The translations under genes were made by a program, and so were the position numbers. A DNA stretch of 64,000 bases from Candidatus Omnitrophota bacterium (GTDB taxonomy: Bacteria > Omnitrophota > Gorgyraeia > Zapsychrales > Zapsychraceae): contig JAGQKV010000012.1 of the NCBI GenBank assembly GCA_020429915.1, forward strand, positions 65,737 through 129,736, written 5' to 3'. This document shows, one piece after another, positions 2,450 to 50,422 of the stretch. Numbering within the stretch: position 1 is the first letter of the stretch; every line of letters starts with the position of its first letter. The notes below the pieces were generated by a model. That model had not been told where the DNA came from, made no database searches, and saw only the letters and a list, made by a program, of their open reading frames with translations.

Positions 2450-3208
2450 CTAGCGTTCCGTGGCGATATAATCGCCGACGATCCGCCCGTGATCAAAGGC
2501 GAAATCCGCTCCCAACAGGTCGTGATAGCCAATAATCTTGAGCGCCTGGGCGTCGTCGCCGCTGCGCGGCTCGCCCATGCCCGTCCCGATAAAAACCGTC
2601 GTGGAGGTCTCAAAACGCGGATCGCGTCCGGGCTGATCATACACCCCGAATTCTCGCAGGCCGCCGAGATCCAAATTGGTCTCCTCCTTGGCCTCCCGCC
2701 GCGCCGCGGTCTGGGCATCCTCTCCCGGGTCAATAAATCCACCCGGCAACGCCCATCCGTAGGGCGGATTGGAGCGCTCGATCACCACCAGCCCCTCCGG
2801 ACGCTCGATAATCAGATCCACGGTATGATACGGCTCCCGTCCCAGATCGATTTCCAGATGCTTAATATATCCTTCGAAAGTATCCTGATATTCCTCCAGA
2901 TTTTGTCCTCCGTCGACGTTAATGACGATATGCTCCAGACCGCTGTCGCCGGCCTTAAGTATCCGGCGGATCTCCTGAGCGACGATGCGGGCCACACCTC
3001 CGATAGGAAAATCGGGGTAACGGTTGTCGAGGCCGGACATTTCAAACAATTTTTCCTCGCGTTCGGCTGCGCGCCGCAGGATATCCCGCACCCGGTCGCG
3101 GACAGGGCCTTGGGCCTTTACCAGTTCGGGGCCCTCCATCCCGACGGCTTTCTTGTCAGGGGTTCCATCCTTTAAAGCGAACGTGATCTCGGTTCCGCGT
3201 AAATTCAT
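2450..3208 (-). CDS. NUDIX hydrolase with an uncharacterised N-terminal extension of about 140 aa
   Basis: Nudix box GGFIDPGEDAQTAARREAKEETNL (GX5EX7REUXEEXGU). Overlaps cca by 4 nt. Confidence 0.8.
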   Translation of the reverse strand: MNLRGTEITFALKDGTPDKKAVGMEGPELVKAQGPVRDRVRDILRRAAEREEKLFEMSGLDNRYPDFPIGGVARIVAQEIRRILKAGDSGLEHIVINVDGGQNLEEYQDTFEGYIKHLEIDLGREPYHTVDLIIERPEGLVVIERSNPPYGWALPGGFIDPGEDAQTAARREAKEETNLDLGGLREFGVYDQPGRDPRFETSTTVFIGTGMGEPRSGDDAQALKIIGYHDLLGADFAFDHGRIVGDYIATER

Positions 3209-4635: not shown

Positions 4636-4720
4636 GGCAAAAAAAAGAGCAGCGAGTAAAGCCGGACATCGATCCGCGCTTCAACGCGCTACTCTGACAG
4701 ATATCGATTGCGGGCCGGTC

Positions 4721-5125
4721 TCAGTTCTTGAAGATGACCGCCTGTTTGATCACGTCTTCGGCCACGTAAATCTCGGCCCCGGTCCGCACCGCGAGCGCCA
4801 CTCCGTCGGAGGGACGCGAGTCGACCAGAATTTTCTTGCCGGTTTTGGTCTTCAATTCCAACTTGGCGTGAAACGTATTGTTATGCATTTTATCGATGAT
4901 CAGACTGTTGAGTTTTGCGCCGAGACTCTCAATCACCGAGGCCAGCAAATCATGCGTCATCGGCCGCGGGGGAATCACCCCGGACAGTTTCATTTTGATA
5001 CTGGAGGCCTCCAGAAAACCGATCACGATCGGGAATTGGCGTTCCCCTTCCTTTTCTTTGAGAACGATAATCTGATCCTGTCGTTTTTCGTCGATGATAA
5101 TTTTGCTGAGTTCAACTTGTATCAT
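4721..5125 (-). CDS. Bifunctional nuclease (DUF151/BFN) domain protein
   Basis: 134-aa ORF with the typical BFN pattern (ILVDSRPSDGVALAVRTGAEIYV). Confidence 0.75.
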   Translation of the reverse strand: MIQVELSKIIIDEKRQDQIIVLKEKEGERQFPIVIGFLEASSIKMKLSGVIPPRPMTHDLLASVIESLGAKLNSLIIDKMHNNTFHAKLELKTKTGKKILVDSRPSDGVALAVRTGAEIYVAEDVIKQAVIFKN

Positions 5126-5148
5126 AAAACCTTCTTTACGGTCGTTGA

Positions 5149-5637
5149 TTAATCGGATGACGTCTTGGCTGATTTGCCGATCTTTTCTTTGTCCAGCATG
5201 CCCTTCAACTCCTGCATGAACTGATTGACGTCACGGAATTGGCGGTAAACCGATGCGAAACGCACATAGGCGACCTCATCGAGCCGCGCCAGTTTTTCCA
5301 TCATGATTTCACCGATATCCTGCGTATGGACCTCACGGTCAAAATTCTTTTGTACGTACCGCTCGACTTCATTCACCAGGGCTTCGATAGTATCGATACT
5401 GACCGGTCGCTTCTCACAGGCCTTCAAGAGACCGGAAATGATCCGCTTGCGATCAAATGGCTGCCGGCGGCCGTCGCGCTTGATAACCATCAACGGGACC
5501 TGCTCGACGAATTCGTACGTCGTGAAGCGGTGCTGACATTTCAGACATTCGCGGCGGCGGCGCACCGAATTCCCTTCTCCACTGAGACGCGAGTCGATAA
5601 CCTTGGTTTCTTTATAGTTGCAGGACGGGCACTTCAC
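5149..5637 (-). CDS. nrdR: Transcriptional repressor NrdR
   Basis: [19 protein letters not shown] zinc ribbon plus an ATP-cone. Confidence 0.95.
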
Positions 5638-5647
5638 AATGCGATCC

Positions 5648-6925
5648 TTAATACACCAGTCCGGGATAGACCGGATATTTTTGCGTCAGCTGTTCCACCT
5701 CGCGGATAACCGCGTCGAGTTCCACCTGATTGTTGCGGTTAGTCATGGCGCGGTCCATCAAACCGGCAATCACGCGCATATCGTCTTCCTTCATGCCGCG
5801 CGAAGTCACCGTGGGCGTCCCGATACGCAGACCGCTGGTCACCGTGGGCTTCTCCGGATCGAAGGGAATCAAATTCTTGTTCACTGTAATGCGCACCGAA
5901 TCAAGTACCGCGGCGGCTTCATTTCCCTTGATATTTTTCGGCCGAAGGTCCATCAGGAAAAGGTGATTGTCGGTGCCGCCGGATACGATCCGGTAACCGA
6001 GACGGCTGAACTCCTCGGCAAAAACGGCCGCGTTCTTCACCACTTGCCGTTGGTACTCCTTGAATTCATCGGTGAGCGCCTCTTTAAAGGCGATCGCCTT
6101 GGCCGCGATGACGTGCATCAGCGGACCGCCCTGGGTACCCGGAAATATGCGGGAATTGATCTTCTTAGCCCACTCCTCCCGGCACATGATGATCCCGGAA
6201 CGCGGACCGCGCAGTGTTTTATGCGTGGTGGTGGTCACAAAGTCGGCGTACGGAACCGGGTTGGGGTGAAGGCCGGCCGCGACCAGTCCGGAAATGTGCG
6301 CCATATCCACCATCAGCAGCGCGCCCACCGAATCGGCTATTTCGCGAAATTTCTTGAAGTCGATGATACGCGGATAGGCCGACGCGCCGGTCACCACCAT
6401 CTTGGGTTTGTGCTCCTTGGCCAGGGCGGCAATGGCGTCATAATCGAACCGCTCGGTTTCCTTGTCGACATGATACGACACAAAATTATAAGAGAGCCCG
6501 GAAAAATTGATCTTCAAGCCGTGTGTCAGATGCCCGCCGCTAGCCAAGTCCAACGCCAACACCGTGTCGCCGTAGTCAAGCGCCGCCAGGTAGACTGCCG
6601 CGTTCGCCTGCGAACCCGAGTGTGGTTGCACATTGACATGCTCAGCCCCGTACAATTCCTTGGCCCGGGCGATCGCCAGCTCTTCGACGACGTCCACGTA
6701 TTCACAACCGTCGTAATAACGTTTATGGGGATAACCCTCGGCATACTTGTTGGTCATGACCGAGCCCTGAGCCTCCATGACCGCAAGGGAAGTGATATTT
6801 TCCGACGCAATTAATTCAAGATTGTCGCGCTGTCGTTTCAGCTCGTGACAGAGCGCCTCATAAACCTCGGGATCTGTTTCCTGGATATGCTTCATGACTT
6901 GCCTCTTCTCTACTGTCGTACTCAC
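5648..6925 (-). CDS. glyA: Serine hydroxymethyltransferase
   Basis: [11 protein letters not shown]...HLTHG..K SHMT signatures. The ATGA overlap with the rpiB stop supports a start at 6925. Confidence 0.95.
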
Positions 6926-29044: not shown

Positions 29045-29584
29045 TCACTTGGTACCCACAGTACATTCACTTTGGACGCAACGGCATGCCCGGCACTGAA
29101 AGTCCGACACCCCTTCCACCTGCGCCGAAATAAAATTGAAACATTGCCTCCCCTGGTTCGTCGGCCGGCCGCAGATGCAATCCGAATCGTCCATACAGTA
29201 GCGCGTGCCCCGGAAATAGTCGGCCTCCGGAAATTTGGACAACACCCGGCCGGTCAAAGCGTCAATCAAAATCGTTAGTCCCAGGCGACCGTCCTGCTCG
29301 ATACCGCAAATCTCTCCCACGGTGAACTGGACGACCCACGCGTTTTCGATACAGGTCACCCAGTCGCTTTCGCAGGGCTTGACCACTTCTTTTTCGATAC
29401 AGTTCTTCAGTCGCCCGTCATACATGGTGTACAACAACTCCGCCTCCTCCGTGCTTTCTGCGACAACCAGCGCTTCCTTGCGGGTCAGTCTCGTTTCCGC
29501 GGTCTGGGCAGCTACCGGAACGGCGGCTATTACCAATGCCATGGCCAATATGTATGATATCAAATTATGCCAGCGCGCTTTCAT
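29045..29584 (-). CDS. Secreted cysteine-rich hypothetical protein
   Basis: Signal peptide LAMALVIAAVPVAAQTA. About 14 Cys residues in 150 aa. Confidence 0.55.
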   Translation of the reverse strand: MKARWHNLISYILAMALVIAAVPVAAQTAETRLTRKEALVVAESTEEAELLYTMYDGRLKNCIEKEVVKPCESDWVTCIENAWVVQFTVGEICGIEQDGRLGLTILIDALTGRVLSKFPEADYFRGTRYCMDDSDCICGRPTNQGRQCFNFISAQVEGVSDFQCRACRCVQSECTVGTK

Positions 29585-33156: not shown

Positions 33157-34428
33157 CTACTTCTTACCGAGCAAGGCGAACATCTTTTTCTTATACGCCT
33201 CCACACCCGGTTGATTAAACGGGTTCACTCCCAGCAGATAGCCCGACACCGCGACGGCGCGTTCAAAGAAATAAAACAGCTGGCCCAGATGATAGGCATC
33301 GCCCTTACAAAGCTTGATCGTCATATTCGGCACATCTCCCTCAAAGTGCGCCGAGGCCGTGGCAATATGCGCCTGTGTATTAACATAATCCAAATCCTTG
33401 CCGGCAACGATGTTGAATCCGTCCAGATCTTCTTCACTGTCAGGAACAGCCAGCGTATGGTCAGGTGTTTCGATATCAATAAAGGTCTCGAACATATTGC
33501 GCAAACCTTCTTGCATAAGCTGACCCATCGAATGCAAATCGGTAGAAAGGCTCAGCGATGAAGGAAAGATTCCTTTGCCCTCCTTCGCCTCACTCTCACC
33601 GTACAGCTGTTTCCACCACTCCAGCACATAGAACACATTATCGTAAAACGAAGCGGCCACTTCGATGACCTTGCCCTTGCGGTACAACAGGTACCGTGTC
33701 GCCGCGTACTGATAGGCAATATTCTTATCGAGGTCAAAGTGCGAGTAGAGTCGTTGCCCTTCCCGCGCGCCGGAGACCAGTGATTTGATATCGATGCCCG
33801 CCAGGGCCAGCGGGACCAGCCCCACCGGCGTCAGAATCGAAAAACGTCCGCCGATATCATCGGGAATGACGTAACTGCGGTAGCCGTTGTCATCGGCGAT
33901 CGTTCGCAAAGCCCCGCGCTTGGCATCGGTGACGCAAATAATGCGTTTCTTCAACTCATCACCGCTGTATTTCGTCTGCAGAAAATCCTTAATAATACGG
34001 AAAGCCAGCGCCGGCTCCGTCGTGGTCCCGGATTTGGAGATCACCACCACCGTGGGATTGCGGTCCTTAAGCTGTTCCAGCAATCGGTAATGATAGTCGG
34101 CGCTGATATTCAGACCCGCGTAAAAAATCGGGATTTTCCCGCCGCGAACAAACTCTTCGGCGGCCCGGATGCCTAGGTAGGACCCCCCGATCCCGATGCT
34201 CACGATGCAATCGGAGTGCCCGCGCACCTCTTCGCCCAGGGCGACCAACTCATCGAGCTGTGCATCAGGGATGCGGCCGGGCAGGTCTGTCCAGCCGGTA
34301 AATTCGTGGCCGGCGCCGCGGCGGTGTTCCAAATCTTCGTGGACCTTCTGAATATTATCGGCGATCGCCTCGATGTCGGATTGTTCGGCAAATCCTTTGA
34401 GATGACCGCGGTCAAGACTTATGCTCAT
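33157..34428 (-). CDS. pgi: Glucose-6-phosphate isomerase
   Basis: PGI family (IGIGGSYLG, SKSGTTTE). True start is MSISLDRGHLKGF with GGAAGG RBS. The track ORF is extended upstream to 34620. Confidence 0.9.
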   Translation of the reverse strand: MSISLDRGHLKGFAEQSDIEAIADNIQKVHEDLEHRRGAGHEFTGWTDLPGRIPDAQLDELVALGEEVRGHSDCIVSIGIGGSYLGIRAAEEFVRGGKIPIFYAGLNISADYHYRLLEQLKDRNPTVVVISKSGTTTEPALAFRIIKDFLQTKYSGDELKKRIICVTDAKRGALRTIADDNGYRSYVIPDDIGGRFSILTPVGLVPLALAGIDIKSLVSGAREGQRLYSHFDLDKNIAYQYAATRYLLYRKGKVIEVAASFYDNVFYVLEWWKQLYGESEAKEGKGIFPSSLSLSTDLHSMGQLMQEGLRNMFETFIDIETPDHTLAVPDSEEDLDGFNIVAGKDLDYVNTQAHIATASAHFEGDVPNMTIKLCKGDAYHLGQLFYFFERAVAVSGYLLGVNPFNQPGVEAYKKKMFALLGKK

Positions 34429-34447
34429 GGCCTTCCTTTCTTTTAGT

Positions 34448-35401
34448 CTATCGCTTTTCTTCGAAATACTGGTACCACTTGCGGGTGGGCGTGTAAATCT
34501 GCTCCGGATCAAACGGACGCCGCCGCGGAGATTCAAGACACTCGGGGCTGCAGCACCCTTCGTATTGATGCGCCCCTTCCTCGCTGCATATGAACAACTT
34601 GTTGCAATCCGGATTGGCACAGTTCAAATAGGTATCGCACGGGACCCCGGTGATTTCACACGTCGTCAGCGGCTGCTCCTGACCCTGCTGGATCGGGACC
34701 GTCAGGCGGTCGTCAAAGACGAAACACTTGCCTTTATAGTGCGCGTCACCGACGGTCTTCGCATAATTGATAATCCCGCCGTGCAGCTGATTTACATCCC
34801 TGAATCCCTTCTTTTTCATCAACACGGAGAACTTCTCGCAGCGGATACCTCCGGTGCAATACATCAACACCTTCTTCGACTTGTCTAGTCCGGCGCGATC
34901 CAGCCATTGCGGAAAATCATAGAAGTTCCGTTCGTCGGGACAGATCGCCCCTTCGAAGTGACCGACTTTGGACTCATAGTCGTTGCGGACATCAATCAGG
35001 ATCACTTCTTCATCCGAGTCCAGTACCGCCTTCCATTCCTCCGGTGAGAGATGACGCCCCCCTTCGCGCACATCCAGCCGTTCGGGGGTCTTGAGCGTCA
35101 CGATTTCTTCACGAACCTTGACGATCAGTTTGACAAACGGCACATGGTCCAATTCGTCAACCTTGAACTCGGTCGCAGCGAAGCCGGGCAGCGCGCGCAC
35201 CGCCTGCATATACGTCTCGATCTGCCCGGATAAACCGGCCAAAGTCCCGTTGATGCCTTCGGCCGCCACGTAGACCCGGCCGTAGACATTCAGTTGCTGG
35301 CACAACTTCTTGTGGGCCAGACAGAATTCCTCCGGATCGGCCACCGGCGCAAATTGGTAGTAAAGAATCAATCTGTAAGGATACGCGGATACTTCGGACA
35401 T
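34448..35401 (-). CDS. trhO: tRNA uridine(34) hydroxylase TrhO (rhodanese-like, YceA family)
   Basis: YYQFAPVADPEE...NVYGRVYVAAEGINGT and the rhodanese CTGGIRCEK. The start could instead be the upstream 35458. Confidence 0.85.
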   Translation of the reverse strand: MSEVSAYPYRLILYYQFAPVADPEEFCLAHKKLCQQLNVYGRVYVAAEGINGTLAGLSGQIETYMQAVRALPGFAATEFKVDELDHVPFVKLIVKVREEIVTLKTPERLDVREGGRHLSPEEWKAVLDSDEEVILIDVRNDYESKVGHFEGAICPDERNFYDFPQWLDRAGLDKSKKVLMYCTGGIRCEKFSVLMKKKGFRDVNQLHGGIINYAKTVGDAHYKGKCFVFDDRLTVPIQQGQEQPLTTCEITGVPCDTYLNCANPDCNKLFICSEEGAHQYEGCCSPECLESPRRRPFDPEQIYTPTRKWYQYFEEKR

Positions 35402-35418: not shown

Positions 35419-36564
35419 TTAACGGCCGGCTAAATGTTCGATGTCCCCGGCGGCACATCCGATCGGCCCCTCGATGATCGCACCGCCAAGCACAACATCA
35501 TTCCGGTAAAAGACGACCGACTGCCCGGGCGTCACCGATTGCTGCGGTTCGTCGAAGTCGACGCGGATGCGGTCGGCCTCCAGACAGGTCAGGCGCGCGG
35601 GAATTTCCGGGGCATTGTAACGGATACGCGCACTCACCGCCACGGTCTCCCGGGGGACGTCCATGCTGACCGGATTAAAGTTTTCGGCAAACAGGCCCTT
35701 GGCATACAAATGTTCCCGCGGGCCGACATGCACCGTGTTGGATTCCTTGTCGATCCTATACACATAGACCGGTTCACCCAGCGCGATCCCGAGTTTATCG
35801 CGCTGTCCGATGGTGTAATTGATGATTCCTTTGTGACGGCCGACGACCTTGCCGTCGGCGCCGACAAAATCCCCGGGAACAAACACGCCGTCACCCAACC
35901 GTTGCCGGATAAACTCCTTGTATCCCGCATCCGGAACAAAACAGATATCCTGGCTCTCCGGCTTGTCGGCCGTGTTCAGCGCATACCGCTCCGCCAATTG
36001 ACGCACTTCGGCCTTGGTCAGATCCCCCAACGGGAACAGGACTCGCGACAACGTTTCCTTTTTCATGCTGTACAGAAAGTAAGACTGACACTTCCGCTGG
36101 TCTTCGGCCTTTTTCATCTCATAGCAGTCACGCGCCCGGTTGTAGTGGATCTTGGCATAATGTCCCGTCGCCAGGCAGTCCGCGCCGAGGCTCATGACTT
36201 TCCGGTATAGTGTGCCGAATTTCAGGAATTGGTTGCAGCGCACACACGGATTCGGGGTCCGGCCGTTGATGTACTCGTCGGTAAAATTGTCGATGATGTG
36301 CTCATTGATATCCTTGGCAAAATCCAGGACATAATGCGGGATATCGAGAATCTGCGCGGCACGTTTGGCATCCTGGATGCCGTCGACCCCGCAGCAGGAA
36401 GGCTTCTTGCTGTCCGGATGCGTAATGCTGAAGCACATCGTCACGCCGACGACATCATAGCCCTGCTCCTTCATCAGCGCGGCCACCACAGACGAATCCA
36501 CCCCGCCGCTCATCGCCACGAAGACCTTCTTGTCCTTGTTGACTTCTCTATTAATATTCACCAT
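35419..36564 (-). CDS. mnmA: tRNA-specific 2-thiouridylase MnmA
   Basis: VFVAMSGGVDSSVVAALM PP-loop and MnmA C-terminal domains. Confidence 0.95.
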   Translation of the reverse strand: MVNINREVNKDKKVFVAMSGGVDSSVVAALMKEQGYDVVGVTMCFSITHPDSKKPSCCGVDGIQDAKRAAQILDIPHYVLDFAKDINEHIIDNFTDEYINGRTPNPCVRCNQFLKFGTLYRKVMSLGADCLATGHYAKIHYNRARDCYEMKKAEDQRKCQSYFLYSMKKETLSRVLFPLGDLTKAEVRQLAERYALNTADKPESQDICFVPDAGYKEFIRQRLGDGVFVPGDFVGADGKVVGRHKGIINYTIGQRDKLGIALGEPVYVYRIDKESNTVHVGPREHLYAKGLFAENFNPVSMDVPRETVAVSARIRYNAPEIPARLTCLEADRIRVDFDEPQQSVTPGQSVVFYRNDVVLGGAIIEGPIGCAAGDIEHLAGR

Positions 36565-38617
36565 ATTCGTTTTCTGTCACTTCATCAATCGCCTGATAAG
36601 CCGCTGTTAACAGCCGGTCGATCTCCGCCCGGCTCACGGAAAGCGGCGGCATCAGGACGATCACATTGCCCAACGGACGCAGGATCACACCGTGCCGGCG
36701 CGCGGCGCGGCAGACCCTTACTCCGACTTGCCGCTCCCACGGAATGGACTTTTTTGTCTGCCGGTCGGCCACCAGCTCAATGCCGACCATGAACCCCTTC
36801 TGTCTGACGTCGCCTACAGAACGTAGATTATAAAACACCCGCAAGCCCTTGCTCAAGTGTTTTATTTTGGCCCCCAGCCGCTGCAAAACCCTTTCTTTTT
36901 CAAAGACTTCGAGATTCGCCAGCGCGGCGGCGCAACACAGTGGATTGCCGGTATAAGTATGCCCGTGAAAGAGCGTCTTCTGGTCCCGGTAGTCGGCCAC
37001 AAAACCGTCGTAAATCTTTTGACTGACTATAGTTGCGGCTAAAGGCAGATAGCCTCCCGTAATCCCCTTGGCCAGGCACATGATGTCCGGGACCACCCCT
37101 TCATGCTGACAGGCAAACATCCGGCCGGTCCGCCCAAAACCGGTTGCCACTTCGTCGGTTATGAGAATAACCCCGTATTCGTCACAGAGCTCCCGAAACC
37201 GGCGGAGTATTCCCTCCGGCCACACGATCATCCCGGCCGCCCCCTGGACCAACGGCTCCACGATCAGCGCGGCCGTACGGTCGTGGAACTTCTTGAGATG
37301 CTGTTCGAACCTGTCCACACATTCAAACGCGTAGGCGGGATATTCCTTGCCGGCCGGGGCCCGGTAACAATCGGGAAAGTCCAGCCGGACCGTTTTAAAG
37401 ATCAGTTTGCGGTAAACCCGGTGAAACAAATCGATGCCGCCGACGCTGACGCTGCCGAGGGTATCGCCGTGATAGGAATTTGCCAGATGCACCAGATCGG
37501 TCTTGCGGGGGCATCCCGTATTCTGCCAATACTGATAGGCCATCTTGAGGGCCACTTCCACGGCGGTCGAACCGTTGTCCGAGTAAAACACCTTATCCAG
37601 ACCGGGCGGGGTGATCTCAACCAGTTTGCGGGCGAGTTGCACGGCGGGCGCATTGGTGAGACCCAAAAGTGTGGAATGCGCCACACGATCGATCTGTTCC
37701 TTGAGCGCGCGATCGATTACAGGTTGGCGGTGACCGTGCACGGTAACCCACAGGCTGGAGATCCCGTCCAAATAGCGGTTGCCGTCGGTGTCGATCAGCT
37801 CGTTGCCGTCTGCCCGGTCGATGACCAAAGGCTCGTCGGCGACCCAATCGCGCATCTGGGTAAACGGATGCCAGATATGCGCCTTATCCAGGCGTTGCAG
37901 ACGGGCCGTCCGGGAAACCCGGCGCGGCCGGCACAGCTTCTTCAGATGGAGATGCTCCCGGCACGCCGCCGTCATCTTCCCGGGATCCTGCGACGCCAGG
38001 TACGGTATGCTGCCCAAGATAGGGACATCGCCGAACTTCCCGATGGCCGCCGGATTGGTCTCGTGGGCAATGGTCGGCTGTTCCCGACACGGCTGATTGA
38101 AAACCACACCGGCAATCTCCAATCCGTATTGATGTGCGCACTGTATGGTCATCAGGGTGTGATTGATCGTCCCCAGACCCGGCAACGCCACGATGACAAT
38201 CCGCGCGTTTAGCTCCCGCGCCAGATCGGCCATCAAATAGTCTTTCGCCAGCGGAACCAACAGCCCCCCCGCCCCCTCGATCAATACGGCTTCATGCCGT
38301 CCTCTGATCTTCTCAAACGCGGCGTTGATTGTCTGCGGCCGGATGATCCGCTTCTGACGTTTGAACGCAATATGCGGCGACAAGGGTTCGGGCGCAAAAT
38401 AGGGATTGATCTCATCCAGCGAATCCGCCACAGCGAGCCCCGACTTCAGACGGGCCGCGTCATCCCCGGCGCATTGCACCGGTTTGAACACGCCGACATC
38501 GACCCCTTGTTCCTGCAGGAGACGCCCCAGGCACAACGTGGCCACGGTCTTGCCGACATCGGTCCCCGTCCCGGTGATAAAAAGATCGCCGATCTGCCGG
38601 CCGAAATCAACCTTCAC
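36551..38617 (-). CDS. bioDA: Bifunctional dethiobiotin synthetase / adenosylmethionine-8-amino-7-oxononanoate aminotransferase (BioD-BioA fusion)
   Basis: N-terminal BioD P-loop FITGTGTDVGKT. C-terminal class-III aminotransferase with ...LAKGITGGYLPL. The probable GTG start at 38617 overlaps the bioC stop (GTGA). The track ORF is extended upstream to 38716. Confidence 0.85.
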   Translation of the reverse strand: MKVDFGRQIGDLFITGTGTDVGKTVATLCLGRLLQEQGVDVGVFKPVQCAGDDAARLKSGLAVADSLDEINPYFAPEPLSPHIAFKRQKRIIRPQTINAAFEKIRGRHEAVLIEGAGGLLVPLAKDYLMADLARELNARIVIVALPGLGTINHTLMTIQCAHQYGLEIAGVVFNQPCREQPTIAHETNPAAIGKFGDVPILGSIPYLASQDPGKMTAACREHLHLKKLCRPRRVSRTARLQRLDKAHIWHPFTQMRDWVADEPLVIDRADGNELIDTDGNRYLDGISSLWVTVHGHRQPVIDRALKEQIDRVAHSTLLGLTNAPAVQLARKLVEITPPGLDKVFYSDNGSTAVEVALKMAYQYWQNTGCPRKTDLVHLANSYHGDTLGSVSVGGIDLFHRVYRKLIFKTVRLDFPDCYRAPAGKEYPAYAFECVDRFEQHLKKFHDRTAALIVEPLVQGAAGMIVWPEGILRRFRELCDEYGVILITDEVATGFGRTGRMFACQHEGVVPDIMCLAKGITGGYLPLAATIVSQKIYDGFVADYRDQKTLFHGHTYTGNPLCCAAALANLEVFEKERVLQRLGAKIKHLSKGLRVFYNLRSVGDVRQKGFMVGIELVADRQTKKSIPWERQVGVRVCRAARRHGVILRPLGNVIVLMPPLSVSRAEIDRLLTAAYQAIDEVTENEYGEY

Positions 38618-39402
38618 CGGCGGGTCCCTTCCAGCCAAATCACACAGAACGTCGCGGTAACGCCGAAACGGTCTGTAAAATGCCGGCGGTAATAATCGCC
38701 GGCGCGCCCAAGCCATTCCTTGCCCAACGCCACCTCGGGATTAAGGACGTTCGCCCCGATCTCCTTGGTCCAACGCAATAACGCCAGCAAATCGGGAAAA
38801 TGGACTTTGATGATCTCTTCGCTGATCTGGATCTCCGAGAATCCGGCCTCACCGGCATACCGCGTGACATCCTCGAGACGGGGAAGTCGGCGAAAGGCGC
38901 GCACCTGGCGGCCCGCCGGGGCGGTTTCTTCGAGGGAGCGAAACATCTCGCCGAAGGTGTCGTAACCGAACAGGGTGATGTAAATCTTTCCGCCATCTCT
39001 CAAAATATCCCGGTTGCCGCGCAGAGCCGCGGGCAGGTCTTCGATCCACTGGTAAGCCAGGTTCGACACGAGCACATCAAAAGAACCGGGCTTAAAGGGA
39101 AGCACACGGGCGTCAGCCTGCACGACGGTAAACTCCGCCCACTTTTTCTGCGCCTCCTGAAGCATTCCGCTGGCAAAATCCAGCCCGACGATCTGCGCCT
39201 CGGGCAAATAGAATCCCAGCCGGTTGGTCAACCAACCCGTACCCATACCGACGTCAAGGATCCGGTCGACACCTTCATTGTCGATCACCTTGCGGCTCAA
39301 CTCACGGCCGATCTCCTTGTGCAGACTGGCCAGGGCCTCGTATTGGGCGGCGGCATCCGAAAAAGACGCACGGATGCGGCGGCTGATGGCATTAAGTATC
39401 AT
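38614..39402 (-). CDS. bioC: Malonyl-[ACP] O-methyltransferase BioC
   Basis: SAM-MTase motif ILDVGMGTG. Sits in the bio cluster between bioH and bioDA. Confidence 0.85.
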   Translation of the reverse strand: MILNAISRRIRASFSDAAAQYEALASLHKEIGRELSRKVIDNEGVDRILDVGMGTGWLTNRLGFYLPEAQIVGLDFASGMLQEAQKKWAEFTVVQADARVLPFKPGSFDVLVSNLAYQWIEDLPAALRGNRDILRDGGKIYITLFGYDTFGEMFRSLEETAPAGRQVRAFRRLPRLEDVTRYAGEAGFSEIQISEEIIKVHFPDLLALLRWTKEIGANVLNPEVALGKEWLGRAGDYYRRHFTDRFGVTATFCVIWLEGTRR

Positions 39403-43704: not shown

Positions 43705-44649
43705 ATGCGTTCCAAGCTATATCTCACATTATTTGCCGCCCTTGCACTGGCCGGGTATCTCAGCCGATTCGGCTTCTGGTTCGATCTGACCACGCATTTT
43801 CAGCCGCAGTATCTGATCGGATTGTTGGCCTGCGCCGGATTCTGCGCCTGGCAACGGCGCTGGAGGACCATGGCCGTGGCTGTCATCTGCGCGGCGATCC
43901 CTTTAAGCCGGATCCTTCCTTTATATATGCCGCTCACCCGCACCGCCCATGCCGGCCCCGCATCCACGCTTTCCCTACTGCTGGTCAATATCAAGGCCGA
44001 GAACCGTCAGTTTGAGAAGCTGCGCGCCTACATCCGGGAGTCCGATCCGGACATTATCGCGCTGGAAGAGTTCAATGAACTTTGGCACAATGAACTTTCG
44101 CCGGTATTGAAGGATTACCCGTACACCATTCATGAATTCAGAGCAGACAATTTCGGCATCGGATTATACAGCCGTCTGCCGGTCGAGAATCTCAAGATCA
44201 AGCGCTTTAGCGATGTTCCCAGTATCTCAGGAGACTTGACCGTCAACGGCCGGCCGCTCACGGTCCTGGTGACACATCCCATCCCGCCGGTCCGTCCGAG
44301 CGCCTTCCGCTACCGCAACCGGCACTTCGCCAACATGGCGGCCGCCCGCGGGGAGTATCACGATAACCTTGTGCTCATCGGCGACTTGAACTCGTCGTCC
44401 TGGTCGTATTTCTTCCAGAAACTGGCCGCGGATATGGGCCTGCGCGACTCACGCGAGGGGTTCGGCCTGCAGTTTTCCTGGCCGACGATGACGGCCTTGC
44501 TGCTGACCACCATTGATCATGCCCTGGTCAGTGATAATATCGTTGTTAATGAAAGGCGTATCGGGAAGGACATCGGATCGGATCACTTTCCGGTGTATCT
44601 TGAGATCGGGGTCAGCGGTCCGCGGGCGGTTACTCCGTCAGCCAACTGA
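43705..44649 (+). CDS. Endonuclease/exonuclease/phosphatase (EEP) family membrane protein
   Basis: 2-3 N-terminal TM helices and EEP motifs (LLLVNIKAEN...LIGDLNSS...SDHFPV). Confidence 0.8.
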   Translation: MRSKLYLTLFAALALAGYLSRFGFWFDLTTHFQPQYLIGLLACAGFCAWQRRWRTMAVAVICAAIPLSRILPLYMPLTRTAHAGPASTLSLLLVNIKAENRQFEKLRAYIRESDPDIIALEEFNELWHNELSPVLKDYPYTIHEFRADNFGIGLYSRLPVENLKIKRFSDVPSISGDLTVNGRPLTVLVTHPIPPVRPSAFRYRNRHFANMAAARGEYHDNLVLIGDLNSSSWSYFFQKLAADMGLRDSREGFGLQFSWPTMTALLLTTIDHALVSDNIVVNERRIGKDIGSDHFPVYLEIGVSGPRAVTPSAN

Positions 44650-47600
44650 TCTGGTCCGCGGATTCCGCAGGCACAACCTCCGGCTCCGGCCCGCCGGCCA
44701 GTGAGTCGCCATTAATCCCGCCGCCGAGTATCAACGGCAGATTAAGAACCGGACTGATATTGATGATGACCGGCACGAAACCGTTTACCGGGACCGTCTG
44801 CAATTCCTGCAACTCCGCGGGCACGTTCATCTGAATCACATCCCCGCTGCTGTGCAATTCCATATTCCCCGCGTTGAGATCGATCCCACCGACCGGACGG
44901 CTCAGCACCGCACGGTCCGTGGACTGCTCACCCTGTTGCACGGCCGTCTCCTGTGCATCCGGCCGGACTCCGAGAATATTGCGCGCGTATTCCAGCTGAT
45001 TGGTAGGGATAATGATGGTCGTGTTGGCCTGAAGGTCTTCGGGTCGGCGAATACCGTTACGGTCCATGATCCGCTGGTAGAGGGGCCGGTTGAAAATGCC
45101 GTCCCATTCCGCCAACGGCGTGGGTGACCCGTCGGCCTGGATACCGTAAAAACGCTGCGCGATGAGTTCCAGACGGTCGCCCGGCTGCACACTATAAGCC
45201 ACCTCCAACCCGCCGGGTACTATCAGCGACACGTTCTGTGGAAGATAGTAAAAGCCGCGCACGGCATTGTAATCGGCGGGATCGGGAAGCGGATCAAGGT
45301 CGAGTTCACTCGCATTTGCACTGTGAATCTCCGGATAGGCAAAATAATTGTCGAAGTAAAGCTTCGCGATACCGCTGAGCGTGCCCATGGCGGCACCCCG
45401 ACGTGTGATAAACCCTTCCACGTCGCTGACGCCGGTGATGTGCACATCCGGCCGCGCCGAATAGTCCATCAACGGCTCGATCAGCGGGACAAGATCACGG
45501 AAGACATCCGGGGGAATGAGTATGGACGGTTCATCCAGATAGCGCGGCAACGCATTGAGCGGAGGCACCGGGCCCTGTTCGGTCACTAGGGGCTCACTGT
45601 CGTTCTCCGCCCCATCCAAGTCACCGCCGGGATTATGGCGCGAATAGATATACGGCGTTATCAACAACGCCGCCACCAACGTGATGATAAGCGTTGCCTC
45701 CGTCACGTCGGAGAAACCGGCACGCGTCACACCGGCTTCGGTCGCGGCAAGTTCAACCGCGGCCGCTTCCGATGCACCGGATTGCGCGGCAAAGACCGGG
45801 GCGTAAGGTTTTCCCCGTTTCTGCAGCGCCAGCACCTCGTCCAAAATGTCGGCAGCCATAGCCTTCAATTCCGCAGCCGACAGCGCCAACGCCGCATCCA
45901 TCAGGTCGGCATTGCTGTCCAGCAACCTGTTATTGAGATCAAAGTCATCGACGCCTAATCGTTGCGCGAAAAGATTGAGGATATTACCGGTGGCCTGTCC
46001 GTAGATCACGGCGTTCTGTCCGGCAAACAACGCGGCCAATCCGCTGTTCAGGGAAATGTGCAGTTCAATGACCTTGACCAAATCGGTGTAAGGCGCGTCT
46101 CCGTACGCGATGCTGGACAGATACGCCGTGGTTTCCTGGGCAATGCGGCGGCCGGCGCCGTAATAGCGGTTCTGCACTCCGTTAAGCTCGTCGCGCGTGT
46201 GCTGACGTTCATGGATCCCGGTGGAGGCGTGACGGCTGCGAAGGATAGCCTCAATCTGATCCGCCCCCGGAAAGCGCGGGTAATCCCGCTGCACTCCCCG
46301 GCGAATCAGCTCACTGAGCCGGTGAATCCCGCGCCCGCCGTAGGTGCGAAACGGCCTCTCAAACAGATGCGGCAGCACGTCGCTGTACGTTTCGCCGTCA
46401 ATTATATCCTTCAACACCACACCGAAGGTATCGCCGTTCCAGGTGAAACCCAAGGCCGCAATATCTTCGTCGACGCGGTCGATCCGCTGTCCCAGGTAAT
46501 AGATTTCCGGCAATGCCCCGCGGCGATTGCGCGGCCCGTCCGTATCGATCTCAATCGCGTCGATCCGGAAGGCCTGGCTCGACAGGATAGATACATTTTG
46601 CTGCGAGCCGTCGGAGAAATTCTGGGTCCGCTCCAACACTTCCAATTGAACGTACACCATCTGTTCCTTGAGAAACGGATTGTTGCGTAAATCACGGGCC
46701 AAATCTTCAATCAACGCCCGGTTGCGGCGTACATTGGCGCTGTAACCGCGCAATCCCTTGCCGATGAGCGACGGACTGAAGCTCCGTTGCAGCAACCGGG
46801 AAAAGATTTTCTCGACACTGGAATCGAGCAGACCCGCACCGCGACGGGTCAGCCGCAGCATGTCGGTCGTCGCGACCTCATGGGCCGAGGCCATCAGCAG
46901 TTGCGGCAGCACTTCCGAGAAAAAGATCATCGTCCGCAGCGACGGGTCCTTGGTCTCGGCCATGGCCTCGACCGCTGGCTGCATTCTGTCCAGATACTGA
47001 CGGGAGGTGACTTCGAGCGGCACGAAAATAGCTTGTTCGGGTTCGCGGCGATCGTCCCGCCGGGTACTCTCCCGCTCGAAACCGAAGGAAATGTCGCGCT
47101 CCCCGCTGGCCGCGTCTTCTCCCTGGGAATAGGCGGATGACGAATCCCCCACCCCAAACGTCCGCTTCGTTGACTCCCGTTCGCCCAACAGCTCGCGTGC
47201 GTGGACCATTATCTGCTCTTTGGTCCGCTCCCGTTCCCGAGCCGCCCGCGCTTCCTCTTCTTCGCGCTCGGTACGGGTACTTGTTCCGCCGGTCGTGCGC
47301 CTATCCGATTCAGGCACCTGAACGATGTATTGCGACCAATCGATCTCTTCGGTTTCCGCTGCCTGCAGCTTGACGCCAAGCTCGGGTGATATCGCGTCGA
47401 AAAGAGCGACGATCTCGTCGACCGTTTCCGGCGTGTATGTCCCGGCAAACTCCGCTTGTTCACGTAATTGCGGCCGGCCGTAGATAAATTCCAGAATGGC
47501 GGTCACCCGTTGGGGAAGATTGGCTTCGAAACGCAGGCTGCGCTTACCGGGCTCTTCAATATCCGCCAGCCGTTCCAATTGACGGATCAGGCCGGCCAAT

Positions 47601-49783
47601 GTCTGAATCCCCCGGTCCTGGCGGAGTTCGCGATAGTAGTCGCCGCGCGACCGTCGCGCGATTTCCTTCCACTCAGGAGCATGATCTTCTCCGAGATATT
47701 TCTGAGTACGCGGGCCGTTGTGAACGTCGACCTTATCGCGCATGATTTGAAGGATTTGAACCACTTGTTTGAGCAGCTGCGGATTGTTACGGACAAACGG
47801 ACTCGCTTCCCGCAAGCGGTCGGCGAGAATTTCGTCCAGCAGACTTCCGGAGCGCATCATTTCCCATGCCATGTTCAGCGAGTTATCGTACGTGCCGCGG
47901 AAGATCCCCAACAGGTCGACGGTCAGGACAGCCGCCTCACCGTCACGCCCCAACCCCAAAGTAAAAGGCGCTACCGTATTGACGGCCAACCGGATATCGG
48001 TCTGCCCCCAGCCACTGACGTCATCACCGTTGGAATCCAGGAAACTTTTCAGCGAGTCGAGCGCATGCCGGACCAGGGCCGCATACACTTCATCGTCGAG
48101 TTCGCGCAGCTGTCCCAGAATCTCGGTCAACAACTCACGGCGGCGGTTACCGTCGCGGGGGATGCTTTGCAACCGTCCGGCGAGCGCCTCAAACACGCGG
48201 CGCTGTTTGTAGCCGTATTTGTCGGTCCTGATCCGATAACCGGCCAGCGTATCCAGCAACGGTTTCAAGGCGGCCAGCTTCTCGGAACTGCGACCCGCCT
48301 CGCCCAGTTCTTCCAGCGATCGGCGCAGGGCCTGCGCAGACGCCCGCAGCCCCTCTTCACCGCCCGGCACGTTTAATTCACGTTCGGGAAATCCGATCCC
48401 AAAGACATAACCGCGGTCGTCATCTACCTCAATTTCAGTGCGTTCTTCCGAACCTTCCACCGCCACGGTCGCCTTACGAAACTGGCGATACCGGATACCG
48501 TCCATCACCACTTCATAACTGCCGAAATGGTACGTATCGTAAAAAGGCAGGACCGCACGGTCGCTCAGACGACCGACTCTGTCAAAGGCGATATCCTCTG
48601 CGCCGGCCGTCCCCCGCCCGCGCAGACCGGTGTTGACCGACAGAATCTTTCCCTGGGGCACGATCTGAGCTGCCACGCTCCCGGGTTCGATTTCCCTGAT
48701 TTGCTGCGGGAGTTTGGAATGGTTCACGCCTCCGGAGAAGTACTTCTTGGGGATAATCTCATCGAGCTGTGGATCGTATTCCTCCTTGATATAGCTGTAC
48801 ACCCCTTCTTTAAAGGCCGTCACGTATTGTTCGTAAATCTTCCGGTTAATCTCGCGGTCCGCTACGTCCACTCCGTCGACACGGTTCTTGTCGACATAGA
48901 CCCGGCTCAGGAAGCTCTCGCGCAGGTTCTTCTTGTACCACGTGGCCAGGATCATGGAATGGTAAATCTGCCGCAAGTTGGAGAATGTCCGGCCGTTGTT
49001 GACCTCGCGTTCGATCTCGGGAATAAGGATCTCCCGGACGATTTGGGAGGACACCTCGGACAAGACATTGGTGTCGCCTGGTTTTTCGGCGGAATGATGT
49101 TCCAGGGCGAGGTAATCCTCCTCCAACATGACTTTCAGCCGGCTGTTGACGACATACACCGTCTGTCCCTGCACGACCACATCGGCCGTCTCCGGAACGA
49201 TCCAGATCTTATTATAGGTGTTGACCGGGACGTCGGTGGTCCCGAACTCAGTCTGGGCCCGTTGATAAACACGGTCCCAAAACTTCTTTCCCAACTCATC
49301 TTCGGGATAGATCATGGAAGCCGTCAGCTGTTTGAGCAGATAGTCCTGCGCCAACAGATCACGCCCCATTTCCGTCCGGCCGAATTCATCCGGAATGATC
49401 CGGTCCCGCTCGAACGGCGACAGGTTGACCCACATCTTGTCTTCCGAGACCGTCAACGCAGCCAGGAAATACTTAATGAGGCGGGTTGACTCGCGCTGCA
49501 AGTCGACTCCGTCCAAATCCTGTTCACCGGTATCGATCAGAAAGTCAAACTGAAGAGGATTGTCCGCATCAATGGTCACCCCGCGTATGATGGCGGGATG
49601 AAAGTCGGGGGTGACATACAACATCGTACCCGGCTCGGGCAAATCAAGGACAGTCGCGGGCTGTGCCGCAAAGGAAGACCCCGGGACCAGTCCGGTATTG
49701 ACAGCCAAAACGCAGGCCATAAATGCCCGGAGGAAACGGCTCCAGACGGTCATGTTCGCATTGTTTCTATGCATAGTTGTCAT
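44630..49783 (-). CDS. Giant multidomain protein of unknown function (about 1700 aa) with a signal peptide, one late TM helix and a LysM-like C-terminal region
   Basis: Continuous 1730-codon ORF. A probable Met start at 49783 or 49753 precedes the SP-like RAFMACVLAVNTGLVPGSSFAAQPA. An E/R-rich low-complexity block lies in the middle. A TM helix appears at about aa 1370 (TLIITLVAALLITPYIY). The C-terminal region is LysM-like (YSVQPGDRLELIAQRFYG). Confidence 0.75.
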   Translation of the reverse strand: MTTMHRNNANMTVWSRFLRAFMACVLAVNTGLVPGSSFAAQPATVLDLPEPGTMLYVTPDFHPAIIRGVTIDADNPLQFDFLIDTGEQDLDGVDLQRESTRLIKYFLAALTVSEDKMWVNLSPFERDRIIPDEFGRTEMGRDLLAQDYLLKQLTASMIYPEDELGKKFWDRVYQRAQTEFGTTDVPVNTYNKIWIVPETADVVVQGQTVYVVNSRLKVMLEEDYLALEHHSAEKPGDTNVLSEVSSQIVREILIPEIEREVNNGRTFSNLRQIYHSMILATWYKKNLRESFLSRVYVDKNRVDGVDVADREINRKIYEQYVTAFKEGVYSYIKEEYDPQLDEIIPKKYFSGGVNHSKLPQQIREIEPGSVAAQIVPQGKILSVNTGLRGRGTAGAEDIAFDRVGRLSDRAVLPFYDTYHFGSYEVVMDGIRYRQFRKATVAVEGSEERTEIEVDDDRGYVFGIGFPERELNVPGGEEGLRASAQALRRSLEELGEAGRSSEKLAALKPLLDTLAGYRIRTDKYGYKQRRVFEALAGRLQSIPRDGNRRRELLTEILGQLRELDDEVYAALVRHALDSLKSFLDSNGDDVSGWGQTDIRLAVNTVAPFTLGLGRDGEAAVLTVDLLGIFRGTYDNSLNMAWEMMRSGSLLDEILADRLREASPFVRNNPQLLKQVVQILQIMRDKVDVHNGPRTQKYLGEDHAPEWKEIARRSRGDYYRELRQDRGIQTLAGLIRQLERLADIEEPGKRSLRFEANLPQRVTAILEFIYGRPQLREQAEFAGTYTPETVDEIVALFDAISPELGVKLQAAETEEIDWSQYIVQVPESDRRTTGGTSTRTEREEEEARAARERERTKEQIMVHARELLGERESTKRTFGVGDSSSAYSQGEDAASGERDISFGFERESTRRDDRREPEQAIFVPLEVTSRQYLDRMQPAVEAMAETKDPSLRTMIFFSEVLPQLLMASAHEVATTDMLRLTRRGAGLLDSSVEKIFSRLLQRSFSPSLIGKGLRGYSANVRRNRALIEDLARDLRNNPFLKEQMVYVQLEVLERTQNFSDGSQQNVSILSSQAFRIDAIEIDTDGPRNRRGALPEIYYLGQRIDRVDEDIAALGFTWNGDTFGVVLKDIIDGETYSDVLPHLFERPFRTYGGRGIHRLSELIRRGVQRDYPRFPGADQIEAILRSRHASTGIHERQHTRDELNGVQNRYYGAGRRIAQETTAYLSSIAYGDAPYTDLVKVIELHISLNSGLAALFAGQNAVIYGQATGNILNLFAQRLGVDDFDLNNRLLDSNADLMDAALALSAAELKAMAADILDEVLALQKRGKPYAPVFAAQSGASEAAAVELAATEAGVTRAGFSDVTEATLIITLVAALLITPYIYSRHNPGGDLDGAENDSEPLVTEQGPVPPLNALPRYLDEPSILIPPDVFRDLVPLIEPLMDYSARPDVHITGVSDVEGFITRRGAAMGTLSGIAKLYFDNYFAYPEIHSANASELDLDPLPDPADYNAVRGFYYLPQNVSLIVPGGLEVAYSVQPGDRLELIAQRFYGIQADGSPTPLAEWDGIFNRPLYQRIMDRNGIRRPEDLQANTTIIIPTNQLEYARNILGVRPDAQETAVQQGEQSTDRAVLSRPVGGIDLNAGNMELHSSGDVIQMNVPAELQELQTVPVNGFVPVIINISPVLNLPLILGGGINGDSLAGGPEPEVVPAESADQISWLTE

Positions 49784-50023
49784 CAGGACGTCTTGATTGG
49801 GGCTATATAGTTTAGCACACAACGGTTTGGGTCACCAGCGCCGCCTGCGGGCGCGCGACATCCTGTAAATATATGCTATGGATAACTTTATGCATCAATC
49901 ATAAAGATAGTTGAGTATGAACTGATGACGACCGACGATCCGCGCCGCCGCATCGCTATATATAATATCGAATTAATATTAATAAAAATAAGCTTCCGCG
50001 GCAAATATGTGCGGCTTAATAAA

Positions 50024-50077: not shown

Positions 50078-50150
<73 letters not shown>

Positions 50151-50256
50151 TATCTTTTTGGCGTACCGGCCGCTGACGAGCGCTCTGCGAGGACCTGGAT
50201 GACTTCGATGATTGCTCCCACAGCATTTTCGTATTCGGCCGTAACCGCCTCCTTTT

Positions 50257-50340
50257 GCTGGAGTGGTGAAATTGGTAGACGCACTGGATTCAAAATCCAG
50301 CGGGGGCGACCCCATGAGAGTTCGAGTCTCTCCTCCAGCA
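50257..50340 (+). tRNA. tRNA-Leu (anticodon CAA)
   Basis: 84 nt. Acceptor stem GCTGGAG/CTCCAGC with discriminator A. Anticodon loop TTCAAAA. Long variable arm. T-loop TTCGAGT. Confidence 0.9.
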
Positions 50341-50422
50341 TTACTCCCCCTTTCCTTTAATACCGCACGGCCATTGACCCTCCGGACATCTTAAGATACA
50401 CTTGAGAAAAAGGAGACCGCCC

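Follow-up and report, generated by a model that had tools for sequence, protein, structure and literature searches.

A long LysM protein of a Candidatus Omnitrophota bacterium represents one lineage of a large phylum-restricted family with conserved terminal modules and a conflicting predicted topology

A 64,000-nucleotide stretch of a Candidatus Omnitrophota bacterium (assembly GCA_020429915.1, contig JAGQKV010000012.1, positions 65,737 to 129,736; "the window", whose numbering is used throughout) carries on its minus strand a gene for a very long protein with a signal-like N terminus and a LysM domain, which is the subject of this report. The open reading frame (ORF) is uninterrupted over 44630..49822 (minus strand) and encodes 1730 amino acids (aa) if the TTG at 49822 is used or 1717 aa from the ATG at 49783; in a full-length alignment the closest ortholog starts three codons inside this ATG. 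The ORF is a real gene, and the conservation of its 5.2 kb at 33-94% identity across metagenome-assembled genomes (MAGs) is far beyond chance. Sequence comparison shows that the protein stands for one lineage of a very large group of long modular proteins, a family that is restricted to the phylum and apparently undescribed. The family plan consists of a Sec-type signal ending in an Ala-Gln junction (A↓Q, the arrow marking the putative cleavage site), an N-terminal domain of ~310 aa (N-domain), a variable cargo, and a C-terminal module of ~56 aa (C-module). In this lineage the cargo comprises a ~670-aa R/E/L-rich region, a ~300-aa HExxH...E domain, one marginal helix and the LysM domain. The features of the gene are as follows.

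44630..49783, minus strand: whole coding sequence, 1717 aa from ATG, stop codon included
49664..49783, minus strand: Sec/signal peptidase I-like signal sequence, aa 1-40, with a positive n-region, a short h-region and an SSFAA↓Q junction
48728..49663, minus strand: family-defining N-terminal domain, aa 41-352, from LPxPG to YFSGG, delimited by identity to otherwise unrelated proteins
46727..48727, minus strand: lineage-specific middle region, aa 353-1019, R/L/E-rich, kept only among full-length orthologs
47213..47275, minus strand: E/R-rich low-complexity block RTEREEEEARAARERERTKEQ, aa 837-857, a linker not conserved in orthologs
45749..46726, minus strand: putative globular zincin-like domain, aa 1020-1345, from the AlphaFold2 (AF2) beta-sheet followed by helices and from ortholog conservation
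46199..46213, minus strand: HERQH, an HExxH motif, aa 1191-1195, with H1191, E1192 and H1195 invariant in six orthologs
46127-46141, minus strand: AQETT with E1217, candidate third ligand, invariant in six orthologs
45641..45697, minus strand: sole candidate transmembrane (TM) helix, aa 1363-1381, ATLIITLVAALLITPYIYS, of marginal hydrophobicity
45005..45196, minus strand: LysM, aa 1530-1593, with a ~21-aa insertion, from Pfam score and orthologs
44723..44896, minus strand: family-wide C-terminal module, aa 1630-1687, GGIDLN...GFVPVIINISPVLNLPLILG, present in 190 of 227 family proteins
44633-44722, minus strand: acidic 30-aa tail after the C-module

A first-pass annotation of this DNA had described the product as an orphan, a view overturned by the orthologs at 33-94% identity and by thousands of paralog-type relatives across Omnitrophota. 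The closest relative, P0001 (MCB9720509.1, from a Candidatus Omnitrophota MAG; database name, "LysM peptidoglycan-binding domain-containing protein"), was 94% identical. P0002 and P0003 were full-length relatives at 41-44% identity and P0005 at 33%, and P0004 was near full length with ~40% identity over three BLAST segments (40% in the alignment). The whole-protein search returned more than 3000 further significant matches among 8000 scored candidates, each of which covered the first ~20% of the protein only (47-68% identity), most matching the last ~56 residues as well. A profile was built from trimmed N-terminal sequences of 35 N-domains (alignment A1), and a HMMER scan of 1.84 billion cluster representatives with this profile recovered 8339 representatives at E<=1e-3 and 6691 at E<=1e-30. 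The N-domain stood at the extreme N terminus in all 150 of the matches listed, in proteins of 420-5312 aa. One-genome-per-species contigs held at least 570 N-domain loci, and single MAGs at least six copies. All of the loci listed (80) came from MAGs labelled Omnitrophota, Planctomycetales or plain "bacterium", and we read the Planctomycetales labels as mislabelled. Elsewhere in the 64-kb window, a search for a paralog of the gene found none.

The family matches were not compositional, since 58 columns of the ~310-aa N-domain were invariant across the 35 sequences (WVNLSP.E, DY.LKQ and KYFSGG among them), with a mean column identity of 56%. The LysM protein has all of the family motifs (LPxPG, WVNLSP(Y/F)E, DY(L/M/I)LKQL and YFSGG), and its N-domain was 50-68% identical to that of more than 100 proteins with unrelated middles. 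Profile searches of Pfam, NCBIfam and PDB sequences gave no match for this domain. An AF2 model of it was of mixed alpha/beta type (pLDDT, 61; pTM, 0.64), and a Foldseek comparison of the model with the PDB gave no match.

In the leader of the protein, MTTMHRNNANMTVWSRFLRAFMACVLAVNTGLVPGSSFAA↓QPATV, basic residues occur together with a hydrophobic stretch, which is short, and with a junction of the small-x-small type; R6, R16 and R19 make up the positive n-region, AFMACVLAV is the h-region, and small residues occupy positions -3 and -1 in either SFA↓A or FAA↓Q. These features bear out the Sec-like character that the first-pass annotation saw in the N terminus. Signal-peptide and TM-helix statistics were obtained throughout with simple hydrophobicity and charge rules written for this analysis. 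The A↓Q junction was found ~8 residues before LPxPG in 181 of 206 members with a complete N terminus (88%). Residue -3 was S, V, A or G in ~72% of members, the tail before the junction was net positive in 96%, the uncharged stretch had a median of 19 residues, and the family consensus places a helix-breaking PP just before the junction. With a rough Hessa sum of +5.4 kcal/mol, the h-region of the LysM protein is too short for a membrane anchor, so that the leader resembles a signal peptide instead. Two other signal-like N termini in the window also end in A↓Q, namely, those of the ORFs at 29045-29584 (minus strand; VAA↓Q) and 20472-26876 (minus strand; ADA↓Q). By analogy with Bacteroidota, in which a Gln-at-+1 rule holds for signal peptidase I substrates, the signal peptidase substrates of this organism may prefer Gln at +1, the sample being very small.

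The C-module has the consensus vGGIDLNPalLDLQIkRDGnGvpLP…IdGFvPVIINItPvtNLPLLLG, followed by a ~30-aa acidic tail, and GGIDL stands 36-37 aa before GFxPVI. Family proteins without it look truncated. When the module was defined as GGI(D/N)(L/F)...G(F)xPVIxxIxP...LG within the last ~30-110 aa, it was found in the LysM protein at aa 1630-1687, before the 30-aa acidic tail. The second hydrophobic stretch that a sliding hydrophobicity scan detected in this protein (aa 1668-1686) lies inside the module. A TM tail anchor was ruled out for this stretch, which in the family is too polar and proline-rich (two or three prolines; rough Hessa sums of +5.8 to +9.5 kcal/mol). The C-module had no match in Pfam, NCBIfam, PDB sequences or PDB folds, and no Pfam or NCBIfam model of known C-terminal sorting domains (type IX secretion system C-terminal domain [T9SS CTD], PEP-CTERM, LPXTG and similar) matched it. 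A scan of metagenomes with a degenerate DNA pattern located the C-module at the following places.

L110:403-1203 (minus strand), L160:55-6576 (plus strand), L118, L120, L138, L146 and L164: C-module without N-domain

The ORF of L160 starts close to the edge of its contig and may represent the last part of a gene that was split. One sub-type of the C-module at these loci reads GGIDLTPANMNLQTQN...FHLDPA...APGFVPVIINIQP. An alternative genetic code behind the short ORFs with a C-module only was considered and rejected, the stops upstream of them being a mixture of TAA, TAG and TGA.

Further observations on the family concern the arrangement of its genes and a recurrent short motif. P0003, an ortholog of the LysM protein, is directly preceded at L001:315-7934 by P0097 (2539 aa, with PALP and ARMT1 domains), which itself belongs to the family, and another ortholog at L003:248-7969 by a 2573-aa cyclic nucleotide (cNMP)-binding protein; family genes may cluster in tandem in other MAGs, which is not so in this window. 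At L116:1-6537 (plus strand), an ORF with the N-domain (1-2850) and an ORF with the C-module (2854-6537) lie in the same frame with a single TAG between them, and this split could be a pseudogene, a sequencing error or a case of stop codon read-through. The motif SSP[IVL], often as SSSPV or SSSPI, was ~21-fold over-represented in P0001-P0226 (271 observed versus 12.9 expected) and tends towards domain borders (e.g., in P0104 and P0214). It is not present in the LysM protein and could indicate linkers or sites of processing or glycosylation.

We next describe the cargo of this lineage. The first-pass annotation had seen ~1300 aa with no motif and a strongly charged E/R low-complexity block. The block is present at aa 837-857, and the Pfam scan of the protein found LysM as its sole match and the NCBIfam scan none; the motif-free stretch, however, contains an invariant HExxH...E. 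Matches to SoxG (E=0.35) and TFIIS (E>=0.22) were treated as noise. H1191, E1192, H1195 and E1217 were invariant in six full-length orthologs (alignment A2), with E1217 standing 22 residues after the second His of HExxH. The AF2 model of aa 1020-1345 (pLDDT, 81; pTM, 0.81) consists of a beta-sheet, the HExxH helix and then a helix with the Glu, so that the predicted model has the gluzincin arrangement of HExxH on a helix and a Glu ~19-25 residues on in the next helix. On this model the domain looks zincin-like and is a candidate member of that group.

Downstream of this domain, a sliding scan detected one internal hydrophobic helix (aa 1363-1381; Kyte-Doolittle average, 1.88), in line with the single TM helix annotated near residue 1370, although its hydrophobicity is marginal. 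The rough Hessa sum of this helix was +1.4 kcal/mol in the LysM protein and P0002 and +2.6 to +3.7 kcal/mol in P0003-P0005, and in P0003 and P0004 it fell below the Kyte-Doolittle threshold of 1.7. The LysM-like segment noted after the helix was also seen; it scored 20.6 bits versus a Pfam PF01476 gathering threshold of 20.9, and the segments at the same position in the orthologs scored 21.1, 32.2, 36.7, 23.5 and 19.0 bits, the last being that of P0005 and the other four lying above the threshold. LysM membership thus appears to hold for the orthologs as a group. Just upstream (~aa 1447-1500) there may be another, weaker segment of LysM type, and P0005 has, just upstream of its LysM match, a match to Phage_tail_X, a family of the LysM clan. 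Among the paralogs, P0104 carries a LysM (23.6 bits) on the N-domain side and no TM helix.

Where these parts of the protein are located in the cell is a matter of conflict between predictions. The first-pass annotation had remarked that a cleaved signal would leave the LysM in the cytoplasm, which it found odd; this paradox is real and extends to the whole family, and no topology derived from simple rules fits all observations. No clear homology to a characterised family with a consistent topology was found either, and the family to which the protein belongs is itself uncharacterised and shows the same conflict. The alternative put forward there, that a signal anchor would place the N-domain in the cytoplasm, is topologically wrong given the positive N-tail: because this tail is positive (96% of members), an uncleaved N-in anchor would still put the next 1300 aa outside. 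Only an N-out anchor would put the following chain inside, and the charges argue against it.

The reading that we favour, and hold weakly at somewhat under even odds, is that of a Sec-exported envelope or surface protein that is tethered to peptidoglycan, carries an HExxH metallopeptidase, and is flanked by end modules for sorting, docking or assembly. The signal sequence would send the chain through Sec, and cleavage after Ala40 would leave an N-terminal Gln. The helix at 1363-1381 would be too weakly hydrophobic for stop-transfer, and if it does not stop transfer there is no cytoplasmic LysM to be explained. The whole protein would then be extracytoplasmic and lie in the cell envelope or a surface coat, where the LysM would tether it to peptidoglycan, that of the cell itself or of a host, and the HExxH domain, as a zinc metallopeptidase, would have peptides or proteins of the envelope as its substrates. 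The N- and C-modules would be handling modules for sorting, docking or assembly and not catalytic parts specific to the protein. Export of the whole chain is the only arrangement that fits both LysM-bearing proteins (this one and P0104) plus the leader, and it is in accord with the "surface coat" proposed in the literature. The long proteins of Omnitrophota have been predicted to be of signal-peptide-plus-TM type or extracellular, and both preprints concerned note the clash of predicted export with enzyme content (10.1101/2023.11.21.568195; 10.64898/2026.06.07.730766).

Several observations weigh against this reading. Profile searches of Pfam and PDB sequences with aa 1020-1345 gave no match, and the AF2 model of this region had no significant Foldseek match (top, the metalloprotease-containing ArdC at E=0.2); since sequence and fold searches recovered no zincin, the metallopeptidase call rests on the motif and the predicted secondary structure. 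The position of the helix is kept across orthologs of 33-94% identity, which suggests a helix function, and its upstream flank is rich in K or R in P0002 (6 K) and in P0003 and P0005 (several R), so that by the positive-inside rule the N-terminal part would be inside and the LysM outside. Across the family, the N-domain side of the first internal TM helix had the higher content of K and R in 20 members and the lower in 7.

The recognisable cargo of the paralogs points in the same direction, being almost wholly of cytoplasmic type. Among the 120 best relatives, the Pfam domains of the cargo included phosphoglucomutase (PGM), UDP-glucose pyrophosphorylase, glucose-6-phosphate isomerase (GPI), aldolase, triosephosphate isomerase (TIM), GAPDH, PGK, enolase and PPDK; PfkB kinases, response-regulator receivers, HATPase, GGDEF, TetR helix-turn-helix and DnaJ; and acetyltransferases, glycosyltransferases, M48 peptidases, UbiB kinases, HEAT repeats and pyridoxal phosphate (PLP) enzymes. 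An internal TM helix was absent from 157 of 190 complete members, so that none separates their cytoplasm-type cargo from the N-domain. Where a real internal TM helix was present, cytoplasm-type domains lay on the N-domain side (P0024, P0045 and P0097), and in P0074 a GH116 domain comes after the helix. An apparent internal TM helix in P0014 was discarded; it lies within the FBPase domain of that protein. Lastly, the C-module also ends proteins with neither an N-domain nor a signal-like N terminus, i.e., an HPr (phosphotransferase system [PTS]) fusion, an SNF2-type helicase and several small ORFs.

Much of this evidence would suit a bitopic protein with its N-terminal part inside and its C-terminal part outside, an arrangement that we consider possible but doubtful. 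The first ~1360 aa would be cytoplasmic, the helix at 1363-1381 would be a type II-like anchor, and the LysM and C-module would be periplasmic, with the leader serving as an uncleaved membrane-association or assembly element, so that a cytoplasmic module would be coupled to peptidoglycan. The basic residues before the helix in the orthologs and the 20:7 charge skew in the family favour it, as does the order of domains, in which cytoplasm-type enzymes are always on the N-domain side and the extracytoplasmic-type LysM (this protein) and GH116 (P0074) come after the helix; the HPr and SNF2 proteins, which are signal-less, suggest that a family module alone need not imply Sec export. This arrangement is difficult to reconcile with the leader, however, since a positive N-tail plus a hydrophobic stretch puts the next domain outside, cleaved or not, and the conserved -3/-1/+1 pattern (A↓Q in 88%) has no obvious reason if the leader is uncleaved. 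In P0104, which lacks a TM helix, a bona fide LysM stands on the N-domain side, and the C-module would be cytoplasmic in the 157 TM-less members yet periplasmic in the LysM protein.

That the family is directed at a host or prey, as a small version of the giant Archaeovorins of the same phylum, seems unlikely. The proteins would be delivered onto or into attached cells by the N-domain and C-module as delivery apparatus, the cargo would work in the target, and the LysM protein would bind and cut the target wall via its LysM and HExxH domain. This would reconcile a Sec signal with cytoplasm-type cargo, and the conserved ends around a variable cargo recall the layout of MARTX toxins. The Archaeovorin-type giants (West-Roberts et al. 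2023, 10.1101/2023.11.21.568195; 10.64898/2026.06.07.730766) have, like the LysM protein, a predicted N-terminal signal peptide and N-terminal regions without identifiable domains. The cargo listed for these proteins of predatory Omnitrophota (10.1101/2023.11.21.568195) matches that of its paralogs (HEAT, glycosyltransferases, PGM, GPI, TIM, aldolase, PPDK, HATPase and GGDEF), and the same conflict between a predicted extracellular site and cytoplasm-type enzymes is found in both groups. The Archaeovorin genes, however, were collected as genes of >90 kb (>30,000 aa) with glycosyltransferase, methyltransferase, glycosyl hydrolase, peptidase and NUDIX domains (10.1101/2023.11.21.568195), whereas the protein described here has 1717 aa and LysM only in Pfam; at 1.7 thousand aa versus >10-30 thousand aa for the giants, it carries none of their metabolic domains. 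The family is also set apart from the giants by its specific ~310-aa N-domain and ~56-aa C-module, neither of which was found described in term and motif searches of the literature, including both preprints (10.1101/2023.11.21.568195; 10.64898/2026.06.07.730766).

The window itself also encodes a Tc/Rhs-type toxin, which is a point in favour of delivery to other cells. This ORF (20472-26876, minus strand) encodes 2134 aa with SpvB, TcdB_toxin_midN, FG-GAP, RHS-repeat and dockerin domains and is polymorphic-toxin-like; a BLAST comparison of it with the LysM protein gave no similarity. Against delivery, there was no evidence of a translocation machinery, and no homology to toxin translocation domains was found in the Pfam, NCBIfam and Foldseek/PDB searches. 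HPr, SNF2 helicases and glycolytic enzymes would be odd effectors, and the gene has a housekeeping neighbourhood.

A type I membrane protein, with a cleaved signal, a periplasmic stretch from aa 41 to 1360, a stop-transfer helix and a cytoplasmic LysM and C-module, is in our estimate very unlikely. It would follow from a signal-like N terminus plus a single hydrophobic helix; cytoplasmic LysM proteins exist (e.g., Kbp/YgaU of Escherichia coli), and a cytoplasmic C-module would be in keeping with its occurrence on proteins that lack a signal. The basic flank is on the wrong side of the helix in the orthologs, however, the TM-less members, unlike this protein, would have the C-module on the exported N-domain side, and LysM is normally extracytoplasmic.

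The gene starts beside two tRNA genes, as the first-pass annotation had noted, but with a gap of 294 bp to the start codon and not the ~250 bp given there. The pair is divergent from the gene.

50078-50150, plus strand: tRNA-Ala(GGC), ARAGORN and Rfam in agreement
50256-50341, plus strand: tRNA-Leu(CAA), ARAGORN and Rfam in agreement

The proposal that a horizontally acquired orphan was brought in on an island integrated at this pair, which has the proximity of the two tRNA genes and nothing else in its favour, can be given next to no credence: genomic islands insert at the 3' ends of tRNA genes and the gene lies 5' of them, its G+C content (0.55-0.59) is typical of the window (0.48-0.59), the flanking ORFs scanned showed no domain of the integrase family, gene order is conserved in a relative, the orthologs P0003 and P0005 adjoin other very long proteins and have no tRNA within 8 kb of their loci, and the family is confined to one phylum. 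The relative concerned, P0227 (90% cluster of P0001), is indexed in 46 collection blocks and was carried by 24 metagenome contigs read (at least 24 in all), and the gene order was identical to that of the window in both of its loci shown. The gene has been inherited vertically and is part of the core gene set of the Omnitrophota bacterium.

The flanks of the gene are of housekeeping type and hold a biotin operon (a bioD-bioA fusion, a bioC-like methyltransferase, a bioH-like hydrolase and bioF), birA, a class V aminotransferase, an Exo_endo_phos protein and a spermidine-synthase-like gene. The bioD-bioA fusion (36551-38716, minus strand) encodes a 721-aa protein in which a dethiobiotin-synthetase-like domain (AAA_26/CbiA) is joined to a class III aminotransferase, and it heads the compact operon beside birA. 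The window also has a gene for a stand-alone phosphoglucose isomerase (487 aa; 33157-34620, minus strand). The genome thus has an ordinary copy of an enzyme that is elsewhere fused in Omnitrophota family proteins, which hints that the fusions may be extra copies.

The modules of the protein and its family were also compared with other known systems. LysM-tethered wall hydrolases and peptidases (PF01476) share with it a LysM (above the Pfam threshold in four of its orthologs), a putative hydrolytic domain and an N-terminal signal; unlike them, it has a putative catalytic domain that matches no known peptidase, a LysM placed after a hydrophobic helix, and two bookend modules. Gluzincins (thermolysin, M1 and M3) share with the predicted domain the HExxH helix, the Glu on the next helix and the preceding beta-sheet, but the domain has neither a Pfam or PDB profile match nor, as stated above, a significant Foldseek match. 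C-terminal sorting domains (T9SS CTD, PEP-CTERM/exosortase, LPXTG/sortase and those of type I secretion) are, like the C-module, short conserved ends found on hundreds of unrelated cargos, mostly with a signal sequence; the C-module differs in that it has no Pfam or NCBIfam model, lacks a TM helix with a basic tail (its tail is acidic), and also occurs on signal-less proteins; nor was a candidate sorting enzyme identified. The two-partner secretion (TPS) domain of exoproteins and the MARTX toxins resemble the family in having a ~300-aa domain after the signal peptide and conserved ends with exchangeable cargo. The resemblance is an analogy of layout only, since the N-domain has no sequence or fold similarity to them and is predicted to be mixed alpha/beta and not a beta-helix.

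GenBank annotates the protein simply as one with a LysM domain. That Omnitrophota have long proteins in which a signal peptide is found with metabolic domains was already known, and it is the two defining modules that are new to Pfam and NCBIfam. A tentative proposal, which we regard as possible though improbable, is that the N-domain with its leader and the C-module may define a new phylum-wide targeting or assembly system, by which ordinary enzymes and regulators of cytoplasmic type would be placed in a surface coat, in a host cell or in some compartment not yet recognised, or would be tethered head to tail through docking of the C-module on the N-domain. The LysM member would then be a wall-anchoring piece, and the giants would be fused units.

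Omnitrophota are widespread, uncultivated, ultra-small bacteria that are considered to live on other cells or to be their predators. The puzzle of signal peptides on metabolic enzymes, acknowledged in the literature, is not confined to their rare giants, since ~8,300 clusters, with several members per genome, share one N-domain and mostly one C-module too, and the ~310-aa domain and the ~56-aa tail provide two defined handles for localisation and recognition. The protein described here is a useful test case, in that it combines a LysM and a single marginal helix in one chain, so that one localisation experiment could separate the topologies.

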